Positions 1-16,196 of a stretch of DNA of 64,000 bases are shown here, piece after piece; within the stretch, counting starts at the first letter, position 1; each line of letters starts with the position of its first letter. Below the pieces are notes generated by a model. The model was not told where the DNA came from. It searched no databases and worked only from the letters and a program-made list of their open reading frames with translations. This stretch comes from an uncultured bacterium (GTDB lineage Bacteria; Acidobacteriota; Thermoanaerobaculia; Multivoradales; JAHZIX01): NCBI GenBank assembly GCA_965368975.1, contig CBDUPA010000016.1, positions 90,712 to 154,711 of the forward strand, written 5' to 3'. Made by a program: the position numbers and the translations under genes.

Positions 1-1398
1 GGCGAGCCGCTACGCTACAGCTTCCCGCATCGGACCTTCCAGGAGTACCTGGCCGGCTGCTACTTGGTCGCCGAAACGGACGATGCCGTGGGCGCGGTAT
101 ACGAGCGGGCAGCAGCCGGGGACTTCTGGTACCTGGCGGTGCAGCTGGGAGCGGAAGAGTTAGTCTACAGTCGGCGCTTTCCGTCCTTGGTCCAGCGGCT
201 GGCGCTGGGCCTGTACCCGTCGGGTGGCAAGCGAGATGAGTCGGCGCGGCGGGCGAGCCTGTGGGCTACTTGGATGGCGACGCTGCTGGAGGCGCAGCCG
301 GGCGGGGTGGCGAGCAGCGGACCGGAGAGCTGGAAGAGCTTTCTAGGCCGGTGTCGGAAGCGGCTATGTGCGCTGCTGGGCAAGGGGCTGCCTGTGCGGG
401 AGCGAGTGGAGGTGGGACGGTTGTTGGCCAAGCTCGGAGACCCGCGGCCGGAGGTGATGACGGTGGAGGGGATGGAGTTCTGCCGCGTGCCGGCGGGGCC
501 GTTCTGGATGGGCAGTGATGACTCGGACGAGCTTGCCTTCGGTGATGAGAAGCCGATCACACGGCAAGAGGTGAACTACGACTACTGGATGGCGCGCTAC
601 CCAGTGACGCAAGCTCAGTTCCGGCTGTTCGTGGAGGCCGGCGGTTACCGGGACTACCGCTACTGGTCGGAAGCCCAGGCCGCCGAGCGCTGGATGGCGG
701 AGACTGGGTTCGATCGGCGACAGGGGCCGGTCTCGTACGGAGAGCGCTTCGACTTGTCGAATCACCCGGTTGTCGGGGTGAGTTGGTTCGAGGCGTTGGC
801 GTTCACGCGTTGGCTGACGGCGGAGTACCGCGAACGAGGCTGGCTGCCGGATGGTTGGTGCATCTCTCTGCCCTCGGAGTTGGAGTGGGAGAAAGCGGCC
901 CGTGGCGGGGAGCAGGTGCTCGTATCTGCGCTTGGTGAGGGTATTGAAATGGTGCAAGGGTGGATCTGTAAAGCACTTCAGGCCGAGCAGCAAGAGAACC
1001 CGGAACCTCGCCGGTTCGTTCCGTGGACGGGTGGTTTCGAAGCGGATCGGCTGAACTGGAGTGGGCAGCGGCTAGGCGCAACGTCGGCACCGGGGCTGTT
1101 CCCGAAAGGCAGCAGCCCGGTGGGCTGCGAGGAGATGTGCGGCAACGTCTGGGAGTGGACGCGCAGCATCTGGGGCGAGGTCCCTTATCCTACAGCCGCT
1201 GCGGATCGACGAGATAGAGAGGATTTTTCGAATTCAAGCGAGTTCCGCGTCTGGCGTGGCGGTTCGTTCGCCGACTATCGGCAAGGCGTGCGCTGCGCCT
1301 ACCGCTACAGGGGTCCTCCGGACTTCCAGTTCTTCGACGTGGGTTTTCGTGTTGCGCTCCTCCCGTTATCTCTGAACTCTGAAGACTCTGAACTCTGA
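1..1398 (+). CDS. DGR target protein 1 (5'-truncated by window): post-NACHT helical region plus C-terminal FGE-sulfatase/CLec-fold domain with VR1
   Basis: Frame is open from base 1 (GEPLRYSFPHRTFQEYLAGCYLV, matching paralog 3300-6491). FGE-type motifs FWMGS, YPVTQAQF, HPVVGVSW, LPSELEWEKAARG, GNVWEW and RGGSF...GFRV are present. Confidence 0.92.
   Translation, partial: GEPLRYSFPHRTFQEYLAGCYLVAETDDAVGAVYERAAAGDFWYLAVQLGAEELVYSRRFPSLVQRLALGLYPSGGKRDESARRASLWATWMATLLEAQPGGVASSGPESWKSFLGRCRKRLCALLGKGLPVRERVEVGRLLAKLGDPRPEVMTVEGMEFCRVPAGPFWMGSDDSDELAFGDEKPITRQEVNYDYWMARYPVTQAQFRLFVEAGGYRDYRYWSEAQAAERWMAETGFDRRQGPVSYGERFDLSNHPVVGVSWFEALAFTRWLTAEYRERGWLPDGWCISLPSELEWEKAARGGEQVLVSALGEGIEMVQGWICKALQAEQQENPEPRRFVPWTGGFEADRLNWSGQRLGATSAPGLFPKGSSPVGCEEMCGNVWEWTRSIWGEVPYPTAAADRRDREDFSNSSEFRVWRGGSFADYRQGVRCAYRYRGPPDFQFFDVGFRVALLPLSLNSEDSEL
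1240..1362 (+). repeat. DGR variable repeat VR1
   Basis: Ungapped 123-nt match to TR 1875-1997. By manual count, 20 mismatches fall at TR adenines and 4 at non-A positions (2 internal, 2 near the 3' end). Confidence 0.95.
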
Positions 1399-1410
1399 AT
1401 CTCTGATCTG
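1370..1410 (+). repeat. Phased CTCTGA microarray downstream of VR1
   Basis: CTCTGA at 1370, 1377, 1386, 1393 and 1401, plus TCTG at 1407. The same spacing recurs after VR2. Confidence 0.8.
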
Positions 1411-1415
1411 GCAAA

Positions 1416-1450
1416 GGGGGAGCCCGAGGGGGCTTGCCCCCTCGGAGGAT
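1416..1450 (+). promoter_or_regulatory. DGR target-recognition hairpin/cruciform 1
   Basis: Perfect inverted repeat CCGAGGGGGC-TT-GCCCCCTCGG at 1424-1445, inside a 35-nt block identical to 6510-6544. Confidence 0.85.
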
Positions 1451-1470
1451 TGTGGTATCTTCTGCGCGCA

Positions 1471-1824
1471 ATGAGTCGACCGGAGATGCCAATCTTCGTC
1501 CGTAGCTTCGATTTCTTGACTTGGTTATTGCCTCTTACCAATCACTTTCCACGTGCCCACCGGCACACAGTTACGCAGCGTCTCCTGAATGCTGCCTTCG
1601 ATCTACGAGAGTGCCTGGAAGCAGCGAACACGCGGCTGGGTCCTGAGCGGTTAGAGTTTCTGGTAGAGGCTGATGTCGCGTTGGGGCGAGTCAGGACCTA
1701 CTTGAGGCTGGTGGAGAAATGGCAGTGGATATCGCCGGGTCAGTATGAGCACGCGGCGCGAATGGTCGCGGAGATCGGCAGGCTCCTCGGAGGTTGGAAG
1801 AAGACAGTCTTGCCTCGAACTTAG
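1471..1824 (+). CDS. avd: DGR accessory variability determinant Avd (four-helix bundle)
   Basis: About 117 aa, [23 protein letters not shown]...EIGRLLGGW, typical of Avd. Lies between the target and TR/RT; ATG at 1471. Confidence 0.9.
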
Positions 1825-1874
1825 GCGACAGTTCCCGGCGTCTGACGCCGGTTTCTGTGGGGATTCGCCCGAAG

Positions 1875-1997
1875 GAGTTCCGCGTCTGGCGTGGCGGTTC
1901 GTTCGCCAACAATCACAACAACGTGCGCTGCGCCTACCGCAACAGGAATCAACCGAACAACCAGAACAACAACATGGGTTTTCGTGTTGTTCTCCTC
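1875..1997 (+). ncRNA. DGR template repeat (TR)
   Basis: AAC/AAT-rich copy of both target 3' ends (aac aat cac aac aac ... aac aac cag aac aac aac), located between avd and RT. Confidence 0.95.
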
Positions 1998-2131
1998 ACA
2001 TTCTCCGATCGCCGGAACTTCCTGGCGGGTCTCCGACCTTTCAGGCCGAGGCGGAAAATGGCGGGGTGGGTTCCCGGCCGCATCCGGGCAATGTACACAA
2101 CTGAGCCTTGCTCGGATCGGGCATATAGGTA

Positions 2132-3247
2132 GTGGCTCCGCCTCCTGGCTCCGGCCTGAGGCGGGGCGAGTTCGCCTCGGAGTTCGACCACCTTATCGAG
2201 TGGTCGAATCTACGCCTCGCCTACCGCAAGGCCAGCAAGGGCAAGCGCGGCCGGTCCGATGTGGCCGCATTCGAGCTGTGCCTCGAAGATAACCTCTTGG
2301 ACCTGCAAGCCGACCTGCAAGCCAGAACCTATCGCCCCGGCGGCTATCGAAGTTTCTTTATCCACGAGCCAAAACGTCGGCGCATCAGTGCCGCACCGTT
2401 TCGGGATCGCGTAGTGCACCACGCGCTGTGCAACGTGATCGAGGAGCGCTTCGAACGCTCGTTTGTTTCTGAGAGTTTCGCCAACCGAGTTGGCAAGGGT
2501 ACCCATCGAGCGCTCGAACACGCCCAAGACTGTGCGCAGCGATTCCGTTTCGTCGTCCAACTCGACATCCGGCAGTTCTTCCCCAGCATCGATCACGAGA
2601 TTCTGTTCGCGTTGCTGCGGCGGAAGATCGAAGACTCCGCAGTGCTCTGGTTGATCGGGCTGATCCTGGCCTCGGGAGAGGGAGTGCTGGCGGACGAGTA
2701 CGATCAGGTCTTCTTTCCGGGTGATGATCTGTGGGCTGCGTTGCGACCGAGGGGCTTGCCCATTGGCAACTTGACCAGTCAGTTCTGGGCCAATGTCTAC
2801 ATGAGCGGTCTGGATCACAAGATCAAGCGGCAGCTGCGTTGCCGGGGGTATGCACGCTACGTAGACGACCTGCTCTTGTTCTCGAACAGCAAGCGTGAGC
2901 TGTGGATGTGGAAAGGGGCGCTGGGGGCGGAGCTGGAGCGCTTGAGGCTGAAGGTTCATCCCGGCGTGCAACCACGGCCGGTGCCAGAAGGTGTTCCGTT
3001 TTTGGGCTTCGTGATCTATCCGCACAAGCGCCTGCTCAAGCGGCGCAAGGCGGTGCACTACCGGCGACGTTTGCGGGGCAAGCTGAGGGCCTCGACTCAG
3101 GCAGAAGAGCCGTTGCGGCAGAGCGTGCAATCGTGGTTGAATCATTGCCGATACGGGAACACGTTTCATTTGTGTGCGAAGCTCCTGGCGGAGGCTGGAG
3201 TTAGCTGCGAGTTGTGGCCGGAGGAACTGGCCGCCCATGATCTGTGA
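2132..3247 (+). CDS. DGR-class reverse transcriptase
   Basis: Motifs KRRRISAAPFRDRVVHHAL, LDIRQFFPSIDH, GLPIGNLTSQ (DGR-type SQ), YARYVDD and FLGF. 371 aa with no maturase/endonuclease extension. Exact start uncertain. Confidence 0.95.
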   Translation: MAPPPGSGLRRGEFASEFDHLIEWSNLRLAYRKASKGKRGRSDVAAFELCLEDNLLDLQADLQARTYRPGGYRSFFIHEPKRRRISAAPFRDRVVHHALCNVIEERFERSFVSESFANRVGKGTHRALEHAQDCAQRFRFVVQLDIRQFFPSIDHEILFALLRRKIEDSAVLWLIGLILASGEGVLADEYDQVFFPGDDLWAALRPRGLPIGNLTSQFWANVYMSGLDHKIKRQLRCRGYARYVDDLLLFSNSKRELWMWKGALGAELERLRLKVHPGVQPRPVPEGVPFLGFVIYPHKRLLKRRKAVHYRRRLRGKLRASTQAEEPLRQSVQSWLNHCRYGNTFHLCAKLLAEAGVSCELWPEELAAHDL

Positions 3248-3299
3248 GGGTAAGTTGTTCGAATTCGTTTACTAACGATTGAGTCTTCAAGAGGTTCAC

Positions 3300-6200
3300 A
3301 TGACGGACCCTTTTTCCAGCATTCTGATCGGCGCCGCCGGTAACGTCACCGCCGGTCTGATTTCCTCCTCCATCGGTGAAGTCGGGGCGTGGCTCAAGGG
3401 AGATGCGGAGCGCGAAGCGGCGCTGAACCGAGCTACACAGACGGGACTGGCCGCCCTCCTGGTCAAGGCCAAGGGGCAGGCCCCGGACCTGTCCGATCAC
3501 GTCGAGACTGCCTTCCAGCTGCCCTTGCGCCATCCGGACCTGATGGCGGATCTCGGTAAGCTGCTGCAGGTGGCGCTGCGCGGCCGAGAGTTCGACAGCG
3601 AGACCGGAGCACGCCTGTTCAGGGAATACCAGTTCGATCTCGCGGATCTACCGGGCCTCGACCTGCAGGAGTGCTTGCGCGAGCTAGAGGCGGCGTTCAT
3701 CGAGACCGCTGACCGCCAGGAGGTCCTGCAGACCGAACTGCTGACCTTCCACGCCCGCCGGCACTCGCAGTTGCTGGAGGAGGCTGTGGCGCTGCTGCGG
3801 CGCATCGGAACGGCGCCTGCGGGGCTCGCTGGTGCGGCGGACGCAGAGACGACGCGTCAGTTGTACCTCCAGCAACTGGCGAGGCATTGCCAGGCGCTGC
3901 CGTTGGCCGAGCTGGGTGGCAAGGGGCAGGGGTTGACCAAGGTGCGGCTTGGCGATGTCTTCATCGAGCTGAACACCCAGACGCGGATCCCGCGGACGCC
4001 GGAAGAGAAGAAGGTCTTCGAAGAAGAGCACGGCTACCCCTCGGATGATCGCCTACTGACCGCCGAGCAGGCCGCGGACCGGCACCCGCAGCTGGTGCTG
4101 CTGGGCCACCCCGGTAGCGGCAAGAGTTCGTTCATCCGGCATCTGGTGGCACGGCTGGCGGCTCCGGGGCCGGCTGCCCCCGCACCGCCGTGGGCGGAGG
4201 GATTGCTACCGGTCCTGCTCGTCTTGCGCCATCTGGCGCCCCTCCTCGCCCGGCTCGAGCTTGACTCGCTCGACCTGGAGCAACGGCGGCAGCGGCTGGG
4301 CGAGGCGCTGCAGGCGGCCGTGGTCGAGAGCGCCAGGCTGTGCGGTGCGGAAGCCTTCGGGGAGAGGCTGCGCGAGGCTCTGATCAGCGGCCGCTGCCTG
4401 CTGGTCCTGGACGGGCTGGACGAGGTGCCGGCGAAGCTGCGACCGATCGTCCGGCGCGCGGTTGAGGCCGCGCTGCAAACCTACAGCCTCGCCCGCGTGA
4501 TCGTGACCTGTCGGGTCCATTCCTACCAGGGCCGGGCGCAGCTGCCGGACTTCACCGTCCACGAACTGATGCCGCTGACTTCCGGCCAGGTCGAGCGCTT
4601 CGTAGAGGTGTGGTACCACGCCCGCCACCTCCACGGGTATGTCACCGCGGCGGAGGCCGAAGAGCGGGCCGAAGACTTGAAGCGCGGGGCGCGGGGCCTG
4701 CTTCAGCTGGCGGACAATCCGATGCTGCTGACCACGATGGCCCTGGTCCACCAGCAGAATATCCGGCTGCCGCCGCAGAAGGTCTGTCTCTACCACGAAG
4801 CGGTCAAGGTGCTGCTGGTGCGCTGGCAGGAAAGCAAGGGGCTGATCCGGGAACTGGCTCCGCGGCTGGTCGAGATCCTGAACGAGGACGGCCGCATCCG
4901 CCCGGTGCTGGAGCGGCTGGCCTTCGAGATCCACCGCAGGGAGCAGGAGGTGGGTGAGAGCGAGGAGTCCGGCCTGGAATGGGAGCGGATGCTCAAGATT
5001 CTCAAGGCACCGGTGTACCTGGGTTCGACATCCCTGGCGGAGGCCTTCCTGGAGTACGTCGATCAGCAGGCCGGGATTCTGGTGGGTCGCGGTGGGGGAC
5101 CGGACGACGCGTTGCGCTACAGCTTCCCGCATCGCACCTTCCAGGAATACCTGGCTGGCTGTTATCTGGTCAGCCAGTCGGAACCGGTGACGGAGATCTA
5201 TCAGCAAGCGGCGGCCGGCGACTTCTGGTACCTACCCGTGCAGCTGGCGGCGGAAGAACTGCTGCACAACCGCCGAGTTCCTCAATTCCTGCTGCGCATC
5301 GCGGTGGGTCTGTTTCCGGTGGGCGGCAAGCGCGATCAGCCGGCACGACGTGCCAGCCTGTGGGCGGCTTGGATGGCGGCCCTGCTGGAAGCGCAGCCGG
5401 GTGGAGTGACGAGCAGCGGCCCAGAGAGTTGGAAGAGCTTTCTGGCGCGCTGTCGCAAGCGGTTGGTCTCGCTGTTGGGCAAGGGGCTGCCGGTGCGGGA
5501 GCGCGTGGAGGCGGGACGGTTGCTGGCCAAGCTGGGGGATCCGCGGCCGGAGGTGATGACGGTGGACGGGATGGAGTTCTGCCGCGTGCCGGCGGGGCCG
5601 TTCTGGATGGGGAGTGAGGAACAGCCGTCAGTCGCTTACCACAAGGAGACTCCGATCACGCGCCAGGAAGTGGACTACGACTTCTGGATGGCGCGCTATC
5701 CGGTGACGCAGGCGCAGTTCCGGCGGTTCGTGGACGCGGGGGGCTATCGCGAGGCACAGTTGTGGGCGGAGGCGCAAGCCGCTGAGTACTGGACGGCGGA
5801 AGCAGGATTCAAGGGCCGTCTGGGGCCGGTCTTGAAGGGAGAGCCGTTCGACTTGCCGAATCACCCGGCAGTGGGGGTGAGCTGGTTCGAGGCGCTGGCG
5901 TTCACGCGCTGGCTGACGGCACGGGCGTGGGACGAAGGCTGGTTACCGTCCGGGTGGCGGGTGGCGTTGCCGTCCGAGTTGGAGTGGGAGAAGGCGGCGC
6001 GGGGTGGGGAGCAGGTGCCGGTCTCGGTGGTCCGAGCCCGGCTGGAGGTGGTGCGCGAAGGGCTCGGGAGGCTGGATGGCGAGCTGGTAGAGAACCCGGA
6101 ACCGCGTCGCGTCTATCCGTGGGGCGGGGACTTCGATGCGGACACGGTGAATTCTCACGGCCGTCTAGGCGGCACCTCGACGCCAGGGGTGTTTCCACAG

Positions 6201-6491
6201 GGGGCGAGCCCGGTGGGCTGTGAGGAGCTGAGCGGTACGGTGTGGGAGTGGACGAGGAGCAGCTTGGGCGAGTATCCCTATCCCGCCGATCCCGAGGGTC
6301 GCCGAGACATAGAGAATATTTCGAATGTTAGTAAGTCTCGCGTGGTGCGCGGTGGTTCGTGGAACGACAGTCTCACCTACGTGCGCTGCGCCTGCCGCTT
6401 CGGCTGGCGTCCGGGCGTCCAGGACTTCAACTGCGGTTTTCGTGTTGTTCTCCTCCCATCCACTCTGAACTCTGTCTTCTCTGAGCTCTGA
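3300..6491 (+). CDS. DGR target protein 2: N-terminal helical domain - NACHT/STAND NTPase - FGE-sulfatase/CLec domain with VR2 (NLR-like)
   Basis: Walker A GHPGSGKS, Walker B LLVLDGLDEV, sensor VIVTCR, NPMLLT and FPHRTFQEYLA, followed by FGE motifs. ATG at 3300 after GAGG (ORF track starts at 3279). Confidence 0.92.
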   Translation: MTDPFSSILIGAAGNVTAGLISSSIGEVGAWLKGDAEREAALNRATQTGLAALLVKAKGQAPDLSDHVETAFQLPLRHPDLMADLGKLLQVALRGREFDSETGARLFREYQFDLADLPGLDLQECLRELEAAFIETADRQEVLQTELLTFHARRHSQLLEEAVALLRRIGTAPAGLAGAADAETTRQLYLQQLARHCQALPLAELGGKGQGLTKVRLGDVFIELNTQTRIPRTPEEKKVFEEEHGYPSDDRLLTAEQAADRHPQLVLLGHPGSGKSSFIRHLVARLAAPGPAAPAPPWAEGLLPVLLVLRHLAPLLARLELDSLDLEQRRQRLGEALQAAVVESARLCGAEAFGERLREALISGRCLLVLDGLDEVPAKLRPIVRRAVEAALQTYSLARVIVTCRVHSYQGRAQLPDFTVHELMPLTSGQVERFVEVWYHARHLHGYVTAAEAEERAEDLKRGARGLLQLADNPMLLTTMALVHQQNIRLPPQKVCLYHEAVKVLLVRWQESKGLIRELAPRLVEILNEDGRIRPVLERLAFEIHRREQEVGESEESGLEWERMLKILKAPVYLGSTSLAEAFLEYVDQQAGILVGRGGGPDDALRYSFPHRTFQEYLAGCYLVSQSEPVTEIYQQAAAGDFWYLPVQLAAEELLHNRRVPQFLLRIAVGLFPVGGKRDQPARRASLWAAWMAALLEAQPGGVTSSGPESWKSFLARCRKRLVSLLGKGLPVRERVEAGRLLAKLGDPRPEVMTVDGMEFCRVPAGPFWMGSEEQPSVAYHKETPITRQEVDYDFWMARYPVTQAQFRRFVDAGGYREAQLWAEAQAAEYWTAEAGFKGRLGPVLKGEPFDLPNHPAVGVSWFEALAFTRWLTARAWDEGWLPSGWRVALPSELEWEKAARGGEQVPVSVVRARLEVVREGLGRLDGELVENPEPRRVYPWGGDFDADTVNSHGRLGGTSTPGVFPQGASPVGCEELSGTVWEWTRSSLGEYPYPADPEGRRDIENISNVSKSRVVRGGSWNDSLTYVRCACRFGWRPGVQDFNCGFRVVLLPSTLNSVFSEL
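6333..6455 (+). repeat. DGR variable repeat VR2
   Basis: Over 6366-6455 versus TR: about 21 mismatches at TR adenines and 4 non-A. The 5' third (6333-6365) differs at non-A positions. Confidence 0.85.
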
Positions 6492-6504
6492 AGCTCTGAT
6501 CTGA
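6463..6504 (+). repeat. Phased CTCTG microarray downstream of VR2
   Basis: CTCTG at 6463, 6470, 6479, 6486 and 6494 (spacing 7, 9, 7, 8, as after VR1). Confidence 0.8.
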
Positions 6505-6509
6505 GAGGT

Positions 6510-6544
6510 GGGGGAGCCCGAGGGGGCTTGCCCCCTCGGAGGAT
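6510..6544 (+). promoter_or_regulatory. DGR target-recognition hairpin/cruciform 2
   Basis: Identical to 1416-1450; inverted repeat at 6518-6539. Confidence 0.85.
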
Positions 6545-6560
6545 CGTGCCGCCGATCCCC

Positions 6561-6710
6561 GGAGGGCGCAATGCCTTGCGCCCCTACGCCCCACCCTTCC
6601 CCACGAACGTTACGCATCCAGGACGCTCATCCCAGCCACCACTGTGGTCGTGCCATGCGTAGCGTTCGGTCGGGGGGAGGGTCCGTAGGGGCGCAGGGGT
6701 CTGCGCCCTC
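6561..6710. repeat. REP doublet (REPIN-like) between convergent genes
   Basis: Two inverted copies of CGTAGGGGCGCA-N6-TGCGCCCTC (6562-6588 on minus, 6684-6710 on plus), plus an inner inverted pair CGAACGTTACGCAT / ATGCGTAGCGTTCG. Confidence 0.7.
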
Positions 6711-6739
6711 TGCTCTGCTCCCATCCGGCTCTCCGGTCG

Positions 6740-7678
6740 CTATCCAACCACCAACCCGACCCCCAACAACAGGCTCACCAGCAACAACAACCGCGCCGTC
6801 TCCCCCAGCAGCGGATTCAACGCCCCGCCATCCCGCGTCCACACTCTTCTCACCAACACGACCGCCAACGGCAACGTGACCCACGGCAGCAACACCCACC
6901 GCGACGCCAGCCCCATTCCGACCACCACCCCCGGCACCACGTACGCGACGCTGAGCAGCAACAAGTACTCCACCCGCGTCCCCGTCGCACCGAGCCGCAC
7001 CGCCAGCGTGCGTTTCCCGGCTCGGGCATCCGTCTCCCGGTCGCGCAAGTTGTTGACCACCAGGATCGCCGTCGACAGACACCCCACGGTCACCGAGCAC
7101 CACCACGCCAGCTCCGGAATCCGCAGCATCTGCGCGTAGACGGTTCCGCAGACGGCGACGAAGCCGAAGAAAATCATCACGAAGATGTCTCCGAGCCCGT
7201 GATACGCCAGCGGAAAAGGCCCGCCGGTGTAGGCGACAGCGCAGACGACCGCCACCAGGCCGATGACGAAGAGGGGCCAGCCGGCTTCGTAGCTGAGGTA
7301 GAGACCACTGATAAAAGCGAGCGTCAGCGCGAGCGCCAGGCCGGCCCGCATCTGCCGGGGCGTCAGCAGGCCGGCGGCGACGGCGCGGGTGGGGCCGAGA
7401 CGGTCTTCTGTGTCGGCCCCTTTTTCGAAATCGAAGACGTCGTTGGCGAAGTTCGTCCCGATCTGGATCCAGATCGCCACCATCAGGGCGCCGAGAGCGG
7501 GCCCCAGCCGGAAACCGCCGGCGTGCCAGGCGAGGGCGGTGCCGACGAGAACGGGGGCGATGCCGGCCCACAGGGTGGCGGGACGGACAGCCAGGATCCA
7601 AGCTTGGAAGGACCCCGGCGGGGCCACCACTGGCTGTACCGACTCGGAACGGACTTCGCCTTGGACGGTCTGTGTCAT
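6740..7678 (-). CDS. menA: 1,4-dihydroxy-2-naphthoate polyprenyltransferase
   Basis: [36 protein letters not shown] and VVNNLRD motifs; multi-TM. Confidence 0.93.
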
Positions 7679-7693
7679 CGCCGCGCCATCACG

Positions 7694-8533
7694 TCACGGG
7701 TAGCGCTTGAAGGACTTGAAGTTGGGCTTGCGCTTCTCGAGGAACGCGTTCTTGCCTTCCTGGCCTTCTTCGGTCATGTAGTACAGCAGCGTCGCGTTGC
7801 CGGCGAGTTCCTGCAGACCGGCCTGACCGTCGCAATCAGCGTTGAGGGCCGACTTCATGCAGCGGATGGCGAGCGGGCTGCGCTCGAGCATCTCGCGGCA
7901 CCACTGGATGGTTTCGGCTTCCAACTGGTCGAGCGGCACGACGGTGTTGACCATGCCCATGTCGAGGGCTTCCTGGGCGCTGTATTGACGGCACAGGAAC
8001 CAGATCTCGCGCGCCTTCTTCTGGCCGACGTGGCGGGCCAGGAAGGAGGCGCCGTAGCCGCCGTCGAAGCTGCCGACTTTGGGGCCGGTCTGGCCGAAGA
8101 TGGCGTTGTCGGCGGCGATGGTGAGGTCGCACATGACGTGCAGCACGTGACCACCGCCGATGGCGTAGCCGGCGACCATGGCGACGACAGGCTTGGGGAT
8201 GGTGCGGATCTGGCGCTGTAGGTCGAGGACGTTGAGGCGCGGGGTGCCTTCGCCGTCGACGTAGCCGGCGTCGCCGCGGATGCGCTGGTCGCCGCCGGAG
8301 CAGAAGGCCTTGGTGCCGGCGCCGGTGAGCACGACGACGCCGACTTCTTCGTCGTTGCGTGCCAGCTCCATGGCGATGCTCATCTCCTTGACGGTGAGCG
8401 GCCGGAAGGCGTTGTGGATCTCCGGGCGGTTCATGGTGATCTTGGCGATGCCTTCGGGGTCGCCGTCGCTATAGGCCTTTTCGTACAGGATATCGGTGAA
8501 CTCGGCGGCGGAGCGCCATTCGACTTGACTCAT
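7694..8533 (-). CDS. menB: 1,4-dihydroxy-2-naphthoyl-CoA synthase
   Basis: Starts MSQVEW after an AGGAGA RBS. Motifs [44 protein letters not shown]. Confidence 0.96.
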
Positions 8534-9441
8534 GGATGCATCTCCTCGGGAGGTGTCGTCAACAAGTCGGCCACAGTGGCCGGGTCTTCGAGTAGGGGAT
8601 TGTGGCCGACGCCGGGCAGCAGGTGGACGGGCGGTCCAGTGGCTTCCGAGCTGGCTTCCGAGCTGGCCTCCGAGGAGGCTTCCGAGGCGGCGGCCAGGCG
8701 GTCGGCGAGGGTGCGGGCGAGGGCGCTGAACTTGGCGTCCTCGCCGCCGACGATCAGGGTGAGGTGGGGCTGGGAACGGCGCGTGCGCCAGCTGTCGACC
8801 AGGCGGTGGCCGTAGTCGGGCATCTCGGCGAGGCCGAGGATTTCGAGGCTGCGCGCCAGGCCCTCGGCGCTGTGCTGACGGCGCCAGCGTCGCTGCGCTT
8901 CTTGGAGGTCGGCGGGGAGCTGCTGCTGGCTGGCGAACAGAGGCAGGGCTTCCCAGGCGTCGAGGAAAGCATCGAGTCCTTCTGCACGTAGCAGATCGAT
9001 CCAGCGACGGTCGGCGGTGCGGCGCTCCTGGCGCTGGATGTCGCCTTCGCGGCCTTCCGGCAGGCCGGGGTGGACGCCGATCAGCGTGACGCGCGCCAGC
9101 TCTTGCTCGGAGAGAGCCTCTCGGGAAGCGCCACCGCCGAGCCCGTGCTCGACCAGCACGCCGAGCGCGACGCGGGCGCCCAGTGAGTAGCCGGCGAGGT
9201 GGACCGGCTGGCCGGTGGTGGTGGCGAGCTGGCGCACGTGTTCGGCGATGCGGGCGGTCTCGTCGGCAAAGCTCATACTGCGATGGCCGGCAGGGGGTTG
9301 AGTGGCTCGAGGTAGACCGTGCCCGAGCAGGTCGGGGGTGCGCACCGTGACGCGTGAGTGGCGGGCGCGCAGGTGGTCGATGACGGGGCACCAGGCGTCG
9401 CCGCCACCGGTGAAGCCGTGCAGCAGGAGGAGCGGGTTCAT
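8530..9441 (-). CDS. menH: SHCHC synthase (alpha/beta hydrolase)
   Basis: [35 protein letters not shown] and GHN motifs. ATGA overlap with menD. Confidence 0.88.
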
Positions 9442-11378
9442 CGCGCCTCCAACATCGGGCGCAGACGCGTGTCGACGTCGGCCCACAGGCGGCGCTGGAA
9501 GGCGGCGGCGCTGAGGTCGCCGTCGGTGGGGACGAGGACTTCGACGACGGTGGGACGGGCCGCGGCGCGCGCTTCGGCGAGGGCGCGGCGCAGGTCGTCG
9601 GCGCTGCGCACGCGTTCGTGGCGCAGGCCCCAGAGCTGGGCGGCGGGGCCGAGGTCGCGGCCATGCGGGGTGGTCCAGTGACGCAGGGTTTCGGCGTCGA
9701 TGCCAGGCGTGCGGGCGATTGGCAGCATCTCGAAGATGCGGCCGCCGTCGTTGTGCAGCACGACGATTACGAACGGCACGTCGAGCTGGGCGGCGCAGGC
9801 GAGGCCGCCGAGGTCGTGCAGGAAGCTGACGTCGCCGAGCAGCAGGGTGGCGGGGCGGCCGGCGGCCTGGGCGGCCCCAGCGGTGCCGGCGATCAGGCCG
9901 TCGATACCGTTGGCGCCGCGCTGGCTCCACACGCGCAGGTCTTTGCGCCGCGCGCGGCACCAGGTGTCGACGTGCCGCACGGCCAGGCTGTTGCCCAGGG
10001 CCAGCAGTTCGCCGGCGGCGGTGCTGTCGACGGTCAGGCGGGTGGCGAGAGCTTCGGTCAGCGGGTCGCCAGTGTCTTCGAGCAGGCCATCGGCGCTCGC
10101 CCAGGCGTTCCGGTTGGCCAGTGTCCAGCTGCGACGCCAGGGGGAGGTCGAGCCGTCTTCCTCGTCCGCGGCGCGGTGAAAGACGCGGCGCGGGCCTTGT
10201 TCTAGCTGGTCGGCGACGGCCGTGGCGATGTCGCCGACGTCGCCGTAGATCAGGGCCTCGGCGCTGGAGCCGGGGTCGTTCCAGCCGTGGGCGGCGAGGA
10301 CGAAGCGGCGGTGGCGTGGGTGTTCGTCGAGGTAGCGTTGCCACAGGCCGGAGGTGGGCGGGGCACCGACTTGAAGGACGACGTCCGGCGCGTGGGTGCG
10401 GCGGAAGGCTTCGCTGTGGAGCAGTGTGTCGAAGGCGTCGGCGTGCAGGATCTCGTCAGGGGGGATGGCCGCGTCGCAGGCAAAGAAGCGCAGTTGACTG
10501 GTGGCCTCGGCGAGCAGTGGATAGCCGGTGAGCGCGGCCAGGCGCAGGATGGCGGTGCGCGGTGTGTGCCGTGCGTGCTGGGTGCTCTGTGTGTGCTGGG
10601 TCAGGGCTGCCGGGCCGGCGACGATCAAGCCGGAACGCGCCGCGCGGCAAGCGCTGACGAGTAGCTGAATGGCTTCGGCGTTCGGCTGTGTTTGCGGTGC
10701 GTAGGGACGAGTTATTGGCTGCTGGCACAGGGCGTCGACGCGGCGGAAGAGGTCGTGCTCGGGATGGTGGTGCTCAGGACGGTGGTGCTCGGGATTGGCC
10801 GCATGCGCTGGTTCGACGTCTTCGAGCGGGTACGGTTCGAGGGGTTTGCGCGCGCGGGCGTTCAGGTGGACGGCGCCGGGACGCGGCCAGCGGCTGGTGA
10901 AGACGGCCTGGGCGGCGGCACGGCGCAGACCGCGCAGGGCGGCGTCACCGGCTTCGGGGGCGCCGAGGTCGAAGAAGGCGCGGGCGTGGTCGCCGAAGAG
11001 TTTCAGCTGGTCGATGGTCTGCGGTGCGGCGCACTGCGTCAGCTCGACGGGGCGGTCGGCGGTCAGGGCGAGCAGCGGTACGTGCGCCTGGGCGGCTTCG
11101 ATGACGGCCGGCAGGTAGTGGGCGCCGGCGGTGCCGGAGGTGCATAGCAGCAGGCTGGGCCGACCGCTGGCGCGCGCCTGACCGAGGGCGTAGAAGGCGG
11201 CGGCGCGTTCGTCGTGGATGTCGGTGCAGGTCAAGTCTGGGTGCGCGATGGCGGCGGCGACGAAGGGGGTCGAGCGCGAGCCGGGGCTGATGACCACGTC
11301 GGTGACACCGGCGGCGGCGAAGCTGTCGAGCAGCAGCCGCGCCCACTCGGTGAGCAGGTTGGCGGCCGCCGTGCTCAC
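9438..11378 (-). CDS. menD: SEPHCHC synthase (ThDP-dependent)
   Basis: [45 protein letters not shown] and NDGGRIF motifs. Confidence 0.95.
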
Positions 11379-13044
11379 CGCATCCCTTCCTCGGGTTCGG
11401 GGCGCTCGGGTGGCCCCGGTTCACGCGAGACTGGATTGTCCGAAACGAGGGCCGAGAGGATGGCTTGCTGCTTCATCGCCGTCTCGCGGTACTCGAGTTC
11501 GGGGTCCGAGTCGGCGACGATGCCGGCACCGGCGAACAGGTAGGCGGTGTCGGGGGTCAGCAGGGAGGAGCGCAGGGCGACCGCGAACTCGCCATCACCG
11601 TTGGCGTCGAACCAGCCGACCGGGCCGGCGTACCAGCCGCGCGGCGTCGACTCTCGCTCGACGATCCAGCGCACCGCGTCGGCCGTGGGCACGCCACCGA
11701 CGGCGGGTGTCGGATGCAGCGTCTCGACCAAGTCGAGCACGTGCGGTGTCGAACTCTGGCTCTTGGCTTGTCCGGGAGCTGGTGCGGGCGTCGCGATCAG
11801 GCGACCGCGGATCGGCGTCTGCAGGTGGACGACGTGGCGCAGCTTGAGCAGGCGCGGCTGGCTGTCCCAGTGCAGCGGACGGCACAGCGGTTCCAAGCGT
11901 TCGACGATGTGGCGCACCACCCAGGCGTGCTCGCCTTGTTCTTTTGGGCTGGCCAGCAGGCGCTCGGCCTCGGCGTCGCCGAGCCCGGCGGAACCGGCGA
12001 GTGCTTCGGTCTCGACCTGCAGCCCGTGGCGACGGATCAGCCGCTCCGGGGTGACGCCGAGGAAGCTGATGCCGGCGCGGTGGAAGGCGAAGCGGAAGCC
12101 GCCGAAAGCAGTGTGCAGGGCGGACAGCCGTTCGAGCACGGCGATCGGGTCGAGTGGTCGCGGCAGGTCGAGCTCGGCGCGGCGCGCGGCGACGATCTTC
12201 TCGAAGCGACCGTCGCGGATGGCGTCGCGGATGGCCTCGATCTGCGCCGTCCATTCTTCGAGCGGGCGCTGGTGCAGGCGTTCGTGCAGGGACAGATCGT
12301 CGTCGGTGTGCTGAGCGATCGATGGCTTTGCGGTCTTCGGGCGCGGCGCAGCCGGTCGCCCCAGGTCGTCGAGGAGCATTTCCAGGCTGTCGAGCCAGGC
12401 ATCGTCGACGCGCTGACGATCCGTGGGCGCCAGCGTGACGGTGAGCAGCGCCGGGGCGTTTGCGCCGTCGCCAGCGGGTAGCACGGCGTAGCGTAGGCGG
12501 GGCAGCACGAAGCTGCCGTCGCCGAACGGCGCCCAGGGGTCGTTCGTGTCCAGTTCTTGACGCTCGCGCGGCGCGAAGGCGAGGCCGCCGTAGAGGCGGG
12601 AGCCGAGGAGCGCGTGCTTGGCTGGCTGGTCTGTTGGCTGCTGGGCCGTTGGGGAGCGGAGGTCGGGATGGCTGACTTCGTGCAGGCGTGCGAACAGCTC
12701 GTCGGCCTGGCGCCGCAGGTCGCTGCAGCGGTCGCGGGTGCCGTTGGCCTGCAACGTCGCCGCGGCGCCGACGGCGGCGACGGCGGCTCCGTGCTGCGGC
12801 GCCCACAGCAGGCCGTGATCAATGGCGGTGGCTCCGACAGCCTCACCGAACAGTGTCGGCAGGGCGCGTACCAGACGAGCCAACGTGCGCTCGGGCGTCA
12901 ACCGCGGTGCCGGCAAGTGCAGCACCGTCCAGGCATCCGGGGACGCCGCCGCCAGTGTTTCGGCGACGAAGCCGCGCAGGCTGTCGGGGGCCGGTGCGTC
13001 GGTGGCAGTGAAGTCGGTGGCTGGAGTCTGTTGCAGAGCTTCGT

Positions 13045-13048
<4 letters not shown>
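11375..13048 (-). CDS. menF: Isochorismate synthase
   Basis: KIVAAR, TPERL, TEALAGS, LHPTPAVGG, RGWYAGPVGW and AGAGIV motifs. Confidence 0.92.
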
Positions 13049-15068
<2,020 letters not shown>

Positions 15069-15086
15069 GTCGTGGGTTCTCCGCGG

Positions 15087-16196
15087 TCAGCGTCGGCGGT
15101 GCACCGTAGCCTCCGCCACCGTGGTCAGAGCCACGACGGCGTCGCCATCGGGAAGGCCGTTCAGGCAGCGCACCGCGCGATGCGAGCGCTCCAAGGCCAG
15201 TTTTCGGCAGTCCTCCACTGCACCGGTGCGGTGCAGGGATGCGATCAAACGGTCGCAGAGCTCGGCGGGCGGCCTTTCGGTGGGCGATTGGGCCTCGCCG
15301 GCCTGCAAAATGCGCTCGATCACGGGCCGCAATTCGGCGTCGCGTTCGAGCGCGAGAATCAGGGGGTAGGTCATCTTGCCTTCACGCAGATCCGTGAACA
15401 GGGTCTTGCCGGTGGTCTGTGTGTCGCCGGTGAGGTCGAGCAGGTCGTCGATCACCTGGAAGGCGACGCCGAGGTGGCTGCCGTACTCTTCGAGCTCGGA
15501 GCACTGCTCGGGCGACAGGCCGCCGCACTTGCCGCCGGCATACATGGCCCAGCGGAAGAGCGCCGCCGTCTTGCCCTCGGCGACCTGGAAGTAGACGTCG
15601 CGGCCGGCGTCGATGCGGCCGCGGTGTTCGAGCTGCACCGACTCGGCGAGCACCATCTGCTCGATGGTGGCGAGCAGCGGCTCCAGCGTGTCGGGGATCT
15701 CGGCGCGGCGTACCCGGCGCAGGGCTTCGATCAGCATCCAGTCGCCAGCGAAGACCGAGGCGGCGTTGCCGTATTCGTGGCGCGCGGTGGGGGCGCCGCG
15801 GCGCGTGTTGGCGAGGTCGACGACATCGTCGTGCAACAGCGTCGCGTTGTGCACCAGCTCGACCGCTACCGCCATGTCCAGCGCCGCTGGCGAAAAGCCA
15901 CTACCGGCGCGTGCAGCCAGGGCCACGCACAGCGGACGCAGGCGCTTGCCGCCCTGCTCCAAGAGGTGGTTGGCGCTCCGGCCGACCAAGCTCTCGGCCA
16001 CCGAGCCGACAGGAGCGATGGCGTCGAGGGCCTCGTCGACGGTCTCGAGGTCAGGTGCGACGAATTCGCTGAGCCCCAACAAGCGGCTGGCGAGGTCGTC
16101 GAGCCCGCGCTCGGCGCACAGGCGACTGAGCTTGCCGAGCAGTTGCGGCGAGCCGACGGGGCCGAGTTCGGAGCCGGAGCGGGGAGCCTGGTTCAT
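15087..16196 (-). CDS. Polyprenyl diphosphate synthase (IspB-like)
   Basis: GGKRLRP, LLHDDVVD (first Asp-rich motif), GKTA, FQVIDDLLD (second), DLREGK. Confidence 0.92.
   Translation of the reverse strand: MNQAPRSGSELGPVGSPQLLGKLSRLCAERGLDDLASRLLGLSEFVAPDLETVDEALDAIAPVGSVAESLVGRSANHLLEQGGKRLRPLCVALAARAGSGFSPAALDMAVAVELVHNATLLHDDVVDLANTRRGAPTARHEYGNAASVFAGDWMLIEALRRVRRAEIPDTLEPLLATIEQMVLAESVQLEHRGRIDAGRDVYFQVAEGKTAALFRWAMYAGGKCGGLSPEQCSELEEYGSHLGVAFQVIDDLLDLTGDTQTTGKTLFTDLREGKMTYPLILALERDAELRPVIERILQAGEAQSPTERPPAELCDRLIASLHRTGAVEDCRKLALERSHRAVRCLNGLPDGDAVVALTTVAEATVHRRR

Follow-up and report, generated by a model that had tools for sequence, protein, structure and literature searches.

This study concerns a diversity-generating retroelement (DGR) at the beginning of a 64,000-nucleotide stretch of DNA, referred to here as the window (contig C16:90712-154711), from the genome of an uncultured bacterium assigned to the Thermoanaerobaculia (Acidobacteriota). 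The list of open reading frames (ORFs) on the + strand gives a long ORF that enters from the window edge and ends at 1398, followed by ORFs of 124 codons at 1450-1824, 371 codons at 2132-3247, and 1070 codons at 3279-6491. These four frames correspond to a first target gene (T1), the accessory gene avd, a gene for a reverse transcriptase (RT), and a second target gene (T2). A non-coding template repeat (TR) lies between avd and the RT gene, and each target gene carries a variable repeat (VR) at its 3' end. The cassette thus has the order T1, avd, TR, RT, T2 and a total length of ~8.4 kb (Table 1). Because T1 begins 1820 nt before the window, the DGR extends beyond 1-6544, the span assigned to it in the original prediction, a reading of the window made from its sequence alone; avd through T2 do lie inside that span, and the feature as a whole is larger.

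Table 1. Features of the DGR cassette, with positions numbered from the first letter of the window
Feature	Position	Strand	Description
T1, 3' part	1-1398	+	Full gene from an ATG 1820 nt upstream of the window (contig C16:88891), 1072 aa
VR1	1240-1368	+	Lectin domain of T1, last ~43 codons
Hairpin 1	1424-1445	not set	GC-rich, 9-bp stem, 4-nt loop CTTG; DNA fold
avd	1450-1824	+	DGR accessory four-helix-bundle protein; start at TTG 1450 or in-frame ATG 1471 (uncertain)
TR	1875-2003	+	Non-coding, between avd and RT; 129 nt, 32 A; mutable core 1907-1979
DGR RT	2132-3247	+	371 aa, GTG start (uncertain)
T2	3300-6491	+	1063 aa from ATG 3300, the most likely start by alignment with paralogs
VR2	6333-6461	+	Effective TR homology starts near 6365
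Hairpin 2	6518-6539	not set	Identical to hairpin 1

Template and Variable Repeats

A repeat finder returned three copies of one sequence, at 1240-1370, 1875-2005, and 6333-6463, of which the middle copy is non-coding and the outer two form the 3' ends of long ORFs. The copies were compared in an ungapped register of 129 nt, and the mismatches at TR adenines were weighed against those at other sites by Fisher test. VR1 differs from TR at 27 positions, comprising 22 of the 32 TR adenines and 5 other sites (p = 9e-13), and VR2 differs from TR at 39 positions, comprising 22 TR adenines and 17 other sites (p = 1.6e-7). Within the mutable core (73 nt, 29 A), VR1 carries 20 changes at adenines and 2 elsewhere, and VR2 carries 21 and 4, respectively. 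In the 5' block of 32 nt (1875-1906), VR1 is identical to TR throughout and VR2 has 12 mismatches at sites other than adenine; the identity of VR2 to TR over these first 32 nt (62%) is no better than the background between the T1 and T2 paralogs (71%). At the 3' side, VR2 matches TR at 21 of 21 positions of 1977-1997, and two of the non-adenine mismatches of VR1 fall at TR 1990-1991, inside a 3' block that is identical in TR and VR2. Between VR1 and VR2, differences are found at 19 of the 32 TR-adenine sites and, of the 97 positions where TR has another base, at 22 (p = 3e-4). No further copy of TR was found elsewhere in the genome by blastn.

The formal alignment of TR with VR1 and VR2 bears out two VR-bearing targets with adenine-biased differences, as the original prediction had proposed. 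Its more specific claim, that the differences lie mostly at adenines and number about 20 and 21 in the two repeats, holds for VR1 throughout (22 of 27) and for the core of both repeats (20 of 22 and 21 of 25) and does not hold for VR2 outside the core (22 of 39 over the full length).

The placement of the adenines in the reading frame of the targets is as described for a repeat that introduces no stops: 30 of the 32 lie at codon position 1 or 2, and TR read in this frame contains 11 AAY codons and 19 variable codons, none of which (0 of 19) can become a stop codon. The repertoire calculated from the 19 variable codons is ~4e17 peptides per VR. In the available text of Wu 2018, the targets that share a DGR "sometimes have different boundaries" of mutagenesis at the 5' side, so the 5' pattern of VR2 need not mean decay.

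In the intervals that separate TR homology from the hairpins (1369-1412 and 6462-6505), the last codons of the targets and the 3' untranslated regions are built of several CTCTGAA-like heptamer copies, which encode a common tail, ...LNS..SEL. These heptamers could form part of a homing-initiation sequence.

Hairpins Downstream of the Variable Repeats

The same GC-rich hairpin is found 3' of both VRs, 55 nt (VR1) and 56 nt (VR2) past the end of TR homology, and no hairpin of this type follows TR. A hairpin/cruciform is needed for the homing of the Bordetella phage BPP-1 DGR, according to the available text of Guo 2011. In the loci of relatives, described below, hairpins were counted as a perfect GC-rich stem of at least 7 bp with a loop of 3-6 nt within 160 nt downstream, and by this measure a hairpin lies downstream of 42 of 70 VRs versus 14 of 53 TR-downstream controls. 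The stems of relatives vary in sequence and have a common G-run/C-run design. The CTTG loop is shared by a locus in a Thermoanaerobaculia metagenome-assembled genome (MAG; locus L017), and an Acidobacteriota locus (L026) has a near-identical hairpin with a 5-nt loop. The hairpin is a candidate for the DGR target-recognition hairpin/cruciform.

Two other hairpin elements were noted in this region. A terminator-like hairpin at 1835-1851 was set aside, as the scan that returned it gave 6 sites versus 4.1 +/- 2.5 expected, which is not significant. Directly after the T2 hairpin, a short GC-rich element (6549-6596) contains a hairpin of its own, GGGCGCAATGCCTTGCGCCC, and is present in further copies (contigs C1 and C12; 94-98% identity); it resembles a dispersed repeat of the REP type.

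Reverse Transcriptase and Avd

The core of avd, TR, and RT is intact, as had been claimed. The Avd protein scores above the cut-offs of both the NCBIfam model NF033474, DivGenRetAVD (82.2 bits, cut-off 80), and the Pfam model PF22296, bAvd (67.8 bits, cut-off 40). The RT retains all columns that are invariant across 26 homologs and carries the motifs IGNLTSQ and YVDD, the same pattern as is seen in four phage DGR RTs, including BPP-1 Brt (IGSLTSQ, YMDD). Among phage genomes, BPP-1 brt matches the RT with 34% identity over 94% of the query, and 154 other phage records also match. The best match in the PDB is 8ub7_A (328 aa; E = 2.3e-53), with the group II RT 6ar1 at 2.8e-22 and other group II RTs weaker. 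We take 8ub7 to be Bordetella Brt; the entry is named just "Reverse transcriptase", and its length is the same as that of Brt.

The genome also encodes two true group II RTs, and these serve as internal references. They have the motif QGGVISP instead, and they score 415-421 bits on the group II RT/maturase model TIGR04416 (cut-off 300), on which the window RT reaches 121-122 bits. On the retron St85 model, the window RT scores 55.8 bits versus a cut-off of 235. An Rfam scan of 1-8000 (4227 families, E <= 1) gave no match, to an intron or retron RNA or to any other family; a group II intron was rejected on the TIGR04416 score and the lack of a match to an intron ribozyme RNA in this interval. 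In a quick maximum-likelihood tree of 35 rows (the window RT, its 26 homologs, two more DGR-like RTs of this genome, four phage DGR RTs, and the two group II RTs, with no retron or DRT rows), the group II pair stands apart on a branch with 100% SH-aLRT support, and the window RT and its homologs fall in a 96% clade. The RT therefore groups with DGR RTs as predicted, its separation from group II RTs being seen in this tree and that from retron RTs in the profile score; judged on sequence, it is of the DGR lineage and not of a group II intron or retron.

Target Proteins

T1 and T2 are paralogs that flank the core on both sides, as originally described, and are 58% identical over 1075 aligned residues. 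Both adopt the same predicted architecture, comprising an NNH2-like helical domain, a NACHT NTPase, a helical region, and a formylglycine-generating enzyme (FGE)-type C-lectin domain with the VR at its C terminus. In T2, the NNH2-like helical domain spans residues 1-~175, the NACHT domain ~256-520, and the FGE/C-lectin domain ~750-1053, with the helical region between the latter two. Identity between the paralogs is 38% in the NNH2-like domain, 57% in NACHT, 72% in the helical region, 67% in the lectin domain before the VR, and 53% in the VR; the NNH2-like domain is the most diverged part (38% vs 57-72% in the NACHT and helical regions).

The assignment of the targets to NACHT/STAND proteins with a C-terminal FGE-type C-lectin domain, made in the original prediction, agrees with Pfam, an AlphaFold2 model, and Foldseek. 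The Pfam FGE-sulfatase family matches T1 (E = 5.7e-47) and T2 (E = 2.2e-43), with both matches extending to the C terminus, and T2 further matches NACHT (PF05729; 28.8 bits, cut-off 26.7), AAA_16, and, under its cut-off, nSTAND1. In an alignment of 26 full-length proteins that includes T1, T2, and a paralog on contig C10, NACHT and FGE are matched in all 26 and NNH2 in 9, and the columns of Walker A (G-x-P-G-x-G-K) and Walker B (D-G-L-D-E) are invariant. In the model of full-length T2 (pLDDT 83.5, pTM 0.75), an N-terminal helical bundle (residues 4-169) is followed by an alpha/beta NTPase, a helical region, and, at the C terminus, a lectin-type domain. Among the Foldseek matches of this model are NLRC4 (4e-11), NOD2 and NLRP3 (in the range 4e-11 to 2e-7), EgtB (8e-12), and formylglycine-generating enzymes. 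These data support T1 and T2 as NLR-like NACHT/STAND NTPases of tripartite design, with an N-terminal output domain, an NTPase, and a C-terminal sensor.

The NNH2-like assignment derives from relatives, which match NNH2, and not from the targets' own sequence. For the N-terminal 175 residues, a set of 1.84 billion representatives contains 101 relatives at E <= 0.001; those that match this part align at or near their own N termini, many in proteins of ~1000 aa, and 17 of 28 short relatives of the domain match NNH2 in Pfam. An atlas comparison places the domain with an NNH3/NNH1 cluster at 0.90 (150 shared features), which is a lead only. A membrane-inserting HeLo/MLKL-like output was considered for the small-residue-rich first helix and set aside, with no evidence for it. 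It is conceivable, if unlikely, that the domain acts as a death or signalling effector of a novel type.

Related Loci

The RT has at least 8000 homologs at E <= 1e-20, and the best non-self homologs are 64-67% identical. Relatives of the locus were taken as the best 80 of 594 related stretches, found by their RT with one genome scanned per species. Of these nearest 80 RT loci, as judged from their names, ~66 are from Chloroflexota, including Promineofilum and many Anaerolineae, and three are from Acidobacteriota (L017, L026, and L061); among the others are Accumulibacter, Contendobacter, Verrucomicrobiota, and KSB1. Section 6 of Doré 2024 (PNAS; PMC10907252), in the text available, names both Accumulibacter and filamentous Chloroflexi, an indirect hint that the RT may belong to clade 5 or 5D in the Roux 2021 numbering used there.

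Searches with the T2 domains by tblastn show that targets of this architecture are common among these loci. At least one FGE match is present in 59 of the 80, at least one NACHT+FGE target in 46, and at least two NACHT+FGE targets in 10; for the 30 loci of at least 16 kb, the corresponding counts are 30, 26, and 7. An adenine-biased TR/VR pair is found in 57 of the 80 loci and two or more VRs in 16. Locus L003 has the same order of target, avd, RT, and target as is observed here, and the Acidobacteriota loci L026 and L061 have two and three VRs, respectively. In the available text of Wu 2018, two targets are reported in 13% of DGRs.

Other DGRs and Paralogs in the Genome

A second DGR is located on contig C15 (3500-10300; locus L083). 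Its RT (6085-7014, minus strand) is 38% identical to the window RT and carries the motifs IGAHSSQ and FLDD, and its TR lies at 7183-7341. The two STAND-FGE targets are oppositely oriented, and TR adenines account for 10 of 11 mismatches in one and 11 of 20 in the other. A ~82% identical copy of the C15 locus, with a near-identical RT and without the TR segment, is present on contig C9 (135484-144607; L084). Since the two VRs of this TR-less copy match the C15 TR with adenine-biased mismatches (17 of 25 and 18 of 25 at adenines), the sequences suggest that the C9 VRs may be served in trans by the C15 TR. No Avd homolog of the window type was found near the C15 and C9 loci. The genome thus contains six adenine-biased VRs and two TRs, with two of the VRs at a TR-less locus on another contig.

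A third NNH2-like/NACHT/FGE paralog is found on contig C10 (223760-227095, minus strand; L082:5761-9096), ~13 kb from rpoB. The protein of 1111 aa is 51% identical to T2. No RT or avd was found on contig C10 by tblastn, and the paralog was rejected as a current third target, as its match to TR covers just 37 nt (28 of 37 identical) with no clear adenine bias.

The two group II intron RT/maturases used as references above are nearly identical to each other and are located at C45:13604-14686 (TIGR04416, 421 bits) and C2:335718-336800 (415 bits), both with the motifs QGGVISP and YADD. Further matches to STAND-FGE paralogs (C2:345304-349218) are found ~9 kb from the C2 copy.

Genomic Context and Host

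The genome assembly comprises 7.13 Mb in 59 contigs with 65.4% G+C, with a completeness of 99.3% and a contamination of 0.09%. The best 119 database relatives of its RpoB show 84-87% identity, and the 12 of these that carry an organism name (85-86% identical) are 11 Thermoanaerobaculia and one Acidobacteriota, in agreement with the probable acidobacterium of the original prediction. The G+C content is 63.8% in the cassette and 56% in avd versus 65.8% and 69.8% in the flanks. This difference, together with the fact that the nearest RT relatives are mostly from Chloroflexota and the host is acidobacterial, hints that the cassette may have been acquired horizontally.

Upstream of T1, on the opposite strand, are genes for an MscS channel, an AMP-binding enzyme, and two patatin-like proteins. 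Downstream of T2, the minus strand of the window (6740-16196) contains a menaquinone/isoprenoid cluster that encodes a UbiA prenyltransferase, a MenB-like enoyl-CoA hydratase fused to a long N-terminal extension, a MenD-like TPP enzyme, a MenF-like chorismate-binding enzyme, a UbiE methyltransferase, an HMG-CoA reductase, and a polyprenyl synthetase. No integrase or phage gene was found among the flanking ORFs scanned.

The patatin-like phospholipase genes lie at contig C16:81571-86349 on the minus strand, 2.5-7 kb upstream of T1. Patatins act as effectors in other defense systems. As effectors of the cassette they were rejected, given their opposite strand and the AMP-binding enzyme and MscS genes between them and T1.

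Discussion

Positions 1-6544, together with the upstream part of T1, very probably constitute a complete chromosomal DGR that diversifies the lectin domains of two NLR-like NACHT targets. The element is a genuine, well-preserved two-target DGR, a well-formed case of a type of locus known from other bacteria.

Several observations weigh against this reading. There is no near-identical genome among 40 relatives, of which 16 have some match to the 6.6-kb locus, the best being 64-69% over <= 1.3 kb, and the RT forms a 90% identity cluster of one member. The VRs carry 5 (VR1) and 17 (VR2) non-adenine mismatches, and most relatives have 0-3. Since these counts exceed those of most relatives, the present TR has not been freshly copied into either VR. 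In VR2, homology to TR has been lost over the 5' 32 nt, and non-adenine drift is greater than in VR1. The N-terminal domain of the targets has no Pfam match of its own (E <= 10), and a model of its 175 residues (pLDDT 86) gave 0 of 227 Foldseek PDB matches at E <= 0.001. No dedicated effector or known defense gene was found adjacent to the cassette among the flanking ORFs scanned, and PADLOC gives only a weak mad8 match for T2 (E = 0.004). Lastly, the hairpins differ from those of the phage DGRs in Guo 2011, for which the available text gives GC stems of 7-10 bp, 4-nt GRNA loops, and a distance of 4-34 bp from the VR: the loop here is CTTG, and the distance is 55-56 nt.

If the cassette works as other members of its family do, the TR-containing RNA would be copied by the RT together with Avd in an adenine-error-prone manner, and the cDNA would take the place of the last part of the lectin-domain coding sequence, in T1 and, in the past at least, also in T2, recoding up to 19 codons per gene without stops. 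The lectin-domain surface would then be a diversified ligand-binding site on predicted cytoplasmic STAND NTPases. By analogy to bacterial NACHT and Avs proteins, binding of a ligand, presumably an invader molecule, at the lectin domain may lead to NTP-dependent oligomerization and an output via the N-terminal helical domain. The anatomy, the adenine bias, the families of the RT and Avd, the domain architecture, and the conserved hairpin are observed directly; ongoing retrohoming, the ligand, a role in immunity, and the output are inferences. So are the adaptive-immunity-like character and the different tuning of the two sensors put forward in the original prediction.

At least VR1 is probably still a recipient of TR-derived sequence, and for VR2 the chances appear about even. 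The main competing explanation is that the element is a fossil or only partly active, such that rewriting has ceased in VR2, or in both VRs, and the adenine bias preserves a trace of past homing. We consider this possible and somewhat doubtful. It would account for the excess of non-adenine mismatches over most relatives, for the 12 of the 17 in VR2 that are crowded into a 5' block less similar to TR than the paralog background, and for the two of the five in VR1 that interrupt a conserved 3' block. Yet every invariant RT column and YVDD are retained and Avd is above its cut-off; TR keeps its 11 AAY codons with no stop-prone codon, and the downstream hairpin is unchanged at both VRs. Even in VR2 the 3' block matches TR in full and the core changes are 21 at adenines versus 4 elsewhere, and its 5' end may reflect the differing boundaries that the available text of Wu 2018 describes among targets of one DGR.

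An active DGR whose NACHT-lectin proteins sense another variable ligand, for instance to recognize kin or self or to signal within aggregates, rather than an immune one, is a quite unlikely alternative, even with no adjacent phage-defense gene or effector, no convincing PADLOC defense model, and an N-terminal domain without a known enzymatic or pore-forming fold; Doré 2024, in the text available, likewise states that an immune role "remains to be experimentally tested". The bacterial NACHT proteins assayed to date, however, protect against phage in the available part of Kibby 2022 (bioRxiv 10.1101/2022.07.19.500537), which also classes FGS-type C termini as "antigen receptor type", and a weak match to EruA, an antiphage NACHT protein, was also seen (39.6 bits, far under the cut-off of 1000). 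Finally, an RT from a group II intron, retron, or DRT with repeats that are ordinary paralog similarity is scarcely credible: the best NCBIfam score is indeed for the group II RT/maturase model (NCBIfam seems to have no DGR-RT model), and the generic RT and DRT models of PADLOC also match, but the group II and retron scores are far below their cut-offs and those of real group II RTs, no match to an intron or retron RNA family was found in 1-8000, the best phage and PDB matches are BPP-1 brt and 8ub7_A, TR is non-coding with adenine-specific mismatches, and Avd is present.

The reading as a two-target DGR can be compared with several characterized or proposed systems. Similar to the BPP-1 DGR (brt, avd, TR, and mtd VR), the cassette has a related RT with IG-x-LTSQ and Y-x-DD motifs, an Avd, adenine-specific TR-to-VR changes at the C terminus of a C-lectin-fold protein, and, 3' of the VR, a GC-rich hairpin whose loop is 4 nt. 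The main differences are that the cassette is chromosomal rather than phage-borne, that it has two predicted cytoplasmic NACHT NTPase targets rather than a tail-fiber receptor-binding protein, that the lectin is of the FGE subtype, and that the loop and spacing of the hairpin are as given above instead of GRNA and 4-34 nt.

The closest parallels in cellular genomes are the clade 5D DGRs of Doré 2024 (e.g., Thiohalocapsa PB-PSB1 DGR 3 and DGR 6), a likeness that rests on target architecture and not on RT clade placement. As far as the available text describes them, many DGR targets of that study have N-terminal extensions lacking characterized domains, and several DGR loci occur per genome, as they do here with the second DGR on contig C15. 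Unlike those systems, the cassette is in an acidobacterial host (Thermoanaerobaculia) and has no adjacent peptidase or adaptor gene. The "antigen receptor type" bNACHT proteins with FGS in the Kibby preprint share the same tripartite organization of an N-terminal domain, NACHT, and a C-terminal FGS sensor. NNH domains are named in that work, and the N terminus here falls under the detection limit of Pfam NNH2, with relatives above it. The preprint, in its available part, describes FGS-type NACHT proteins as probably diversified by DGR RTs and reports no FGS-type bNACHT as assayed for defense. In Kaur, Burroughs, Iyer, and Aravind 2020 (eLife; PMC7159879), DGR-coupled hypervariable FGS domains are, as here, C-terminal modules of NTPase-centered conflict systems; the systems in the available text are mainly vWA-MoxR ternary systems of cyanobacteria and gammaproteobacteria, and no vWA, MoxR, or VMAP partners are found near the cassette.

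The original prediction had singled out the layout of the locus as special, and this is not supported. The layout is not unusual, because the same layout is present in public genomes, acidobacterial MAGs among them, with NACHT+FGE targets and multiple VRs recurring among the nearest loci at the frequencies given above, and because the class has been described by Doré 2024 and Kibby 2022. As for the host phylum, acidobacteria are absent from the main texts of Doré 2024, Kaur 2020, and Wu 2018, whose supplementary survey tables may list such loci, and a limited full-text literature search for "diversity-generating retroelement" with "acidobacteri" found no report of an acidobacterial DGR.

The cassette extends the class to the Thermoanaerobaculia, a lineage that does not appear in the main text of Doré 2024, and leaves the concept unchanged. 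Of the bacterial analogs that have been proposed for antigen receptors with somatic diversification, DGR-diversified NACHT-lectin proteins are the closest to date. The cassette is compact, with four genes, no extra partners nearby, two paralogous receptors, and cis elements kept at both VRs, and for these reasons it is a reasonable candidate for a first reconstitution. A broader view, which we regard as unlikely, is that DGR-diversified NLR-like receptors may form a network in this acidobacterial genome, in which two TRs would serve six VRs and the outputs possibly differ between paralogs. If that were true and the host were unicellular, the proposed tie between DGR-diversified NLR-like proteins and multicellularity would be loosened.

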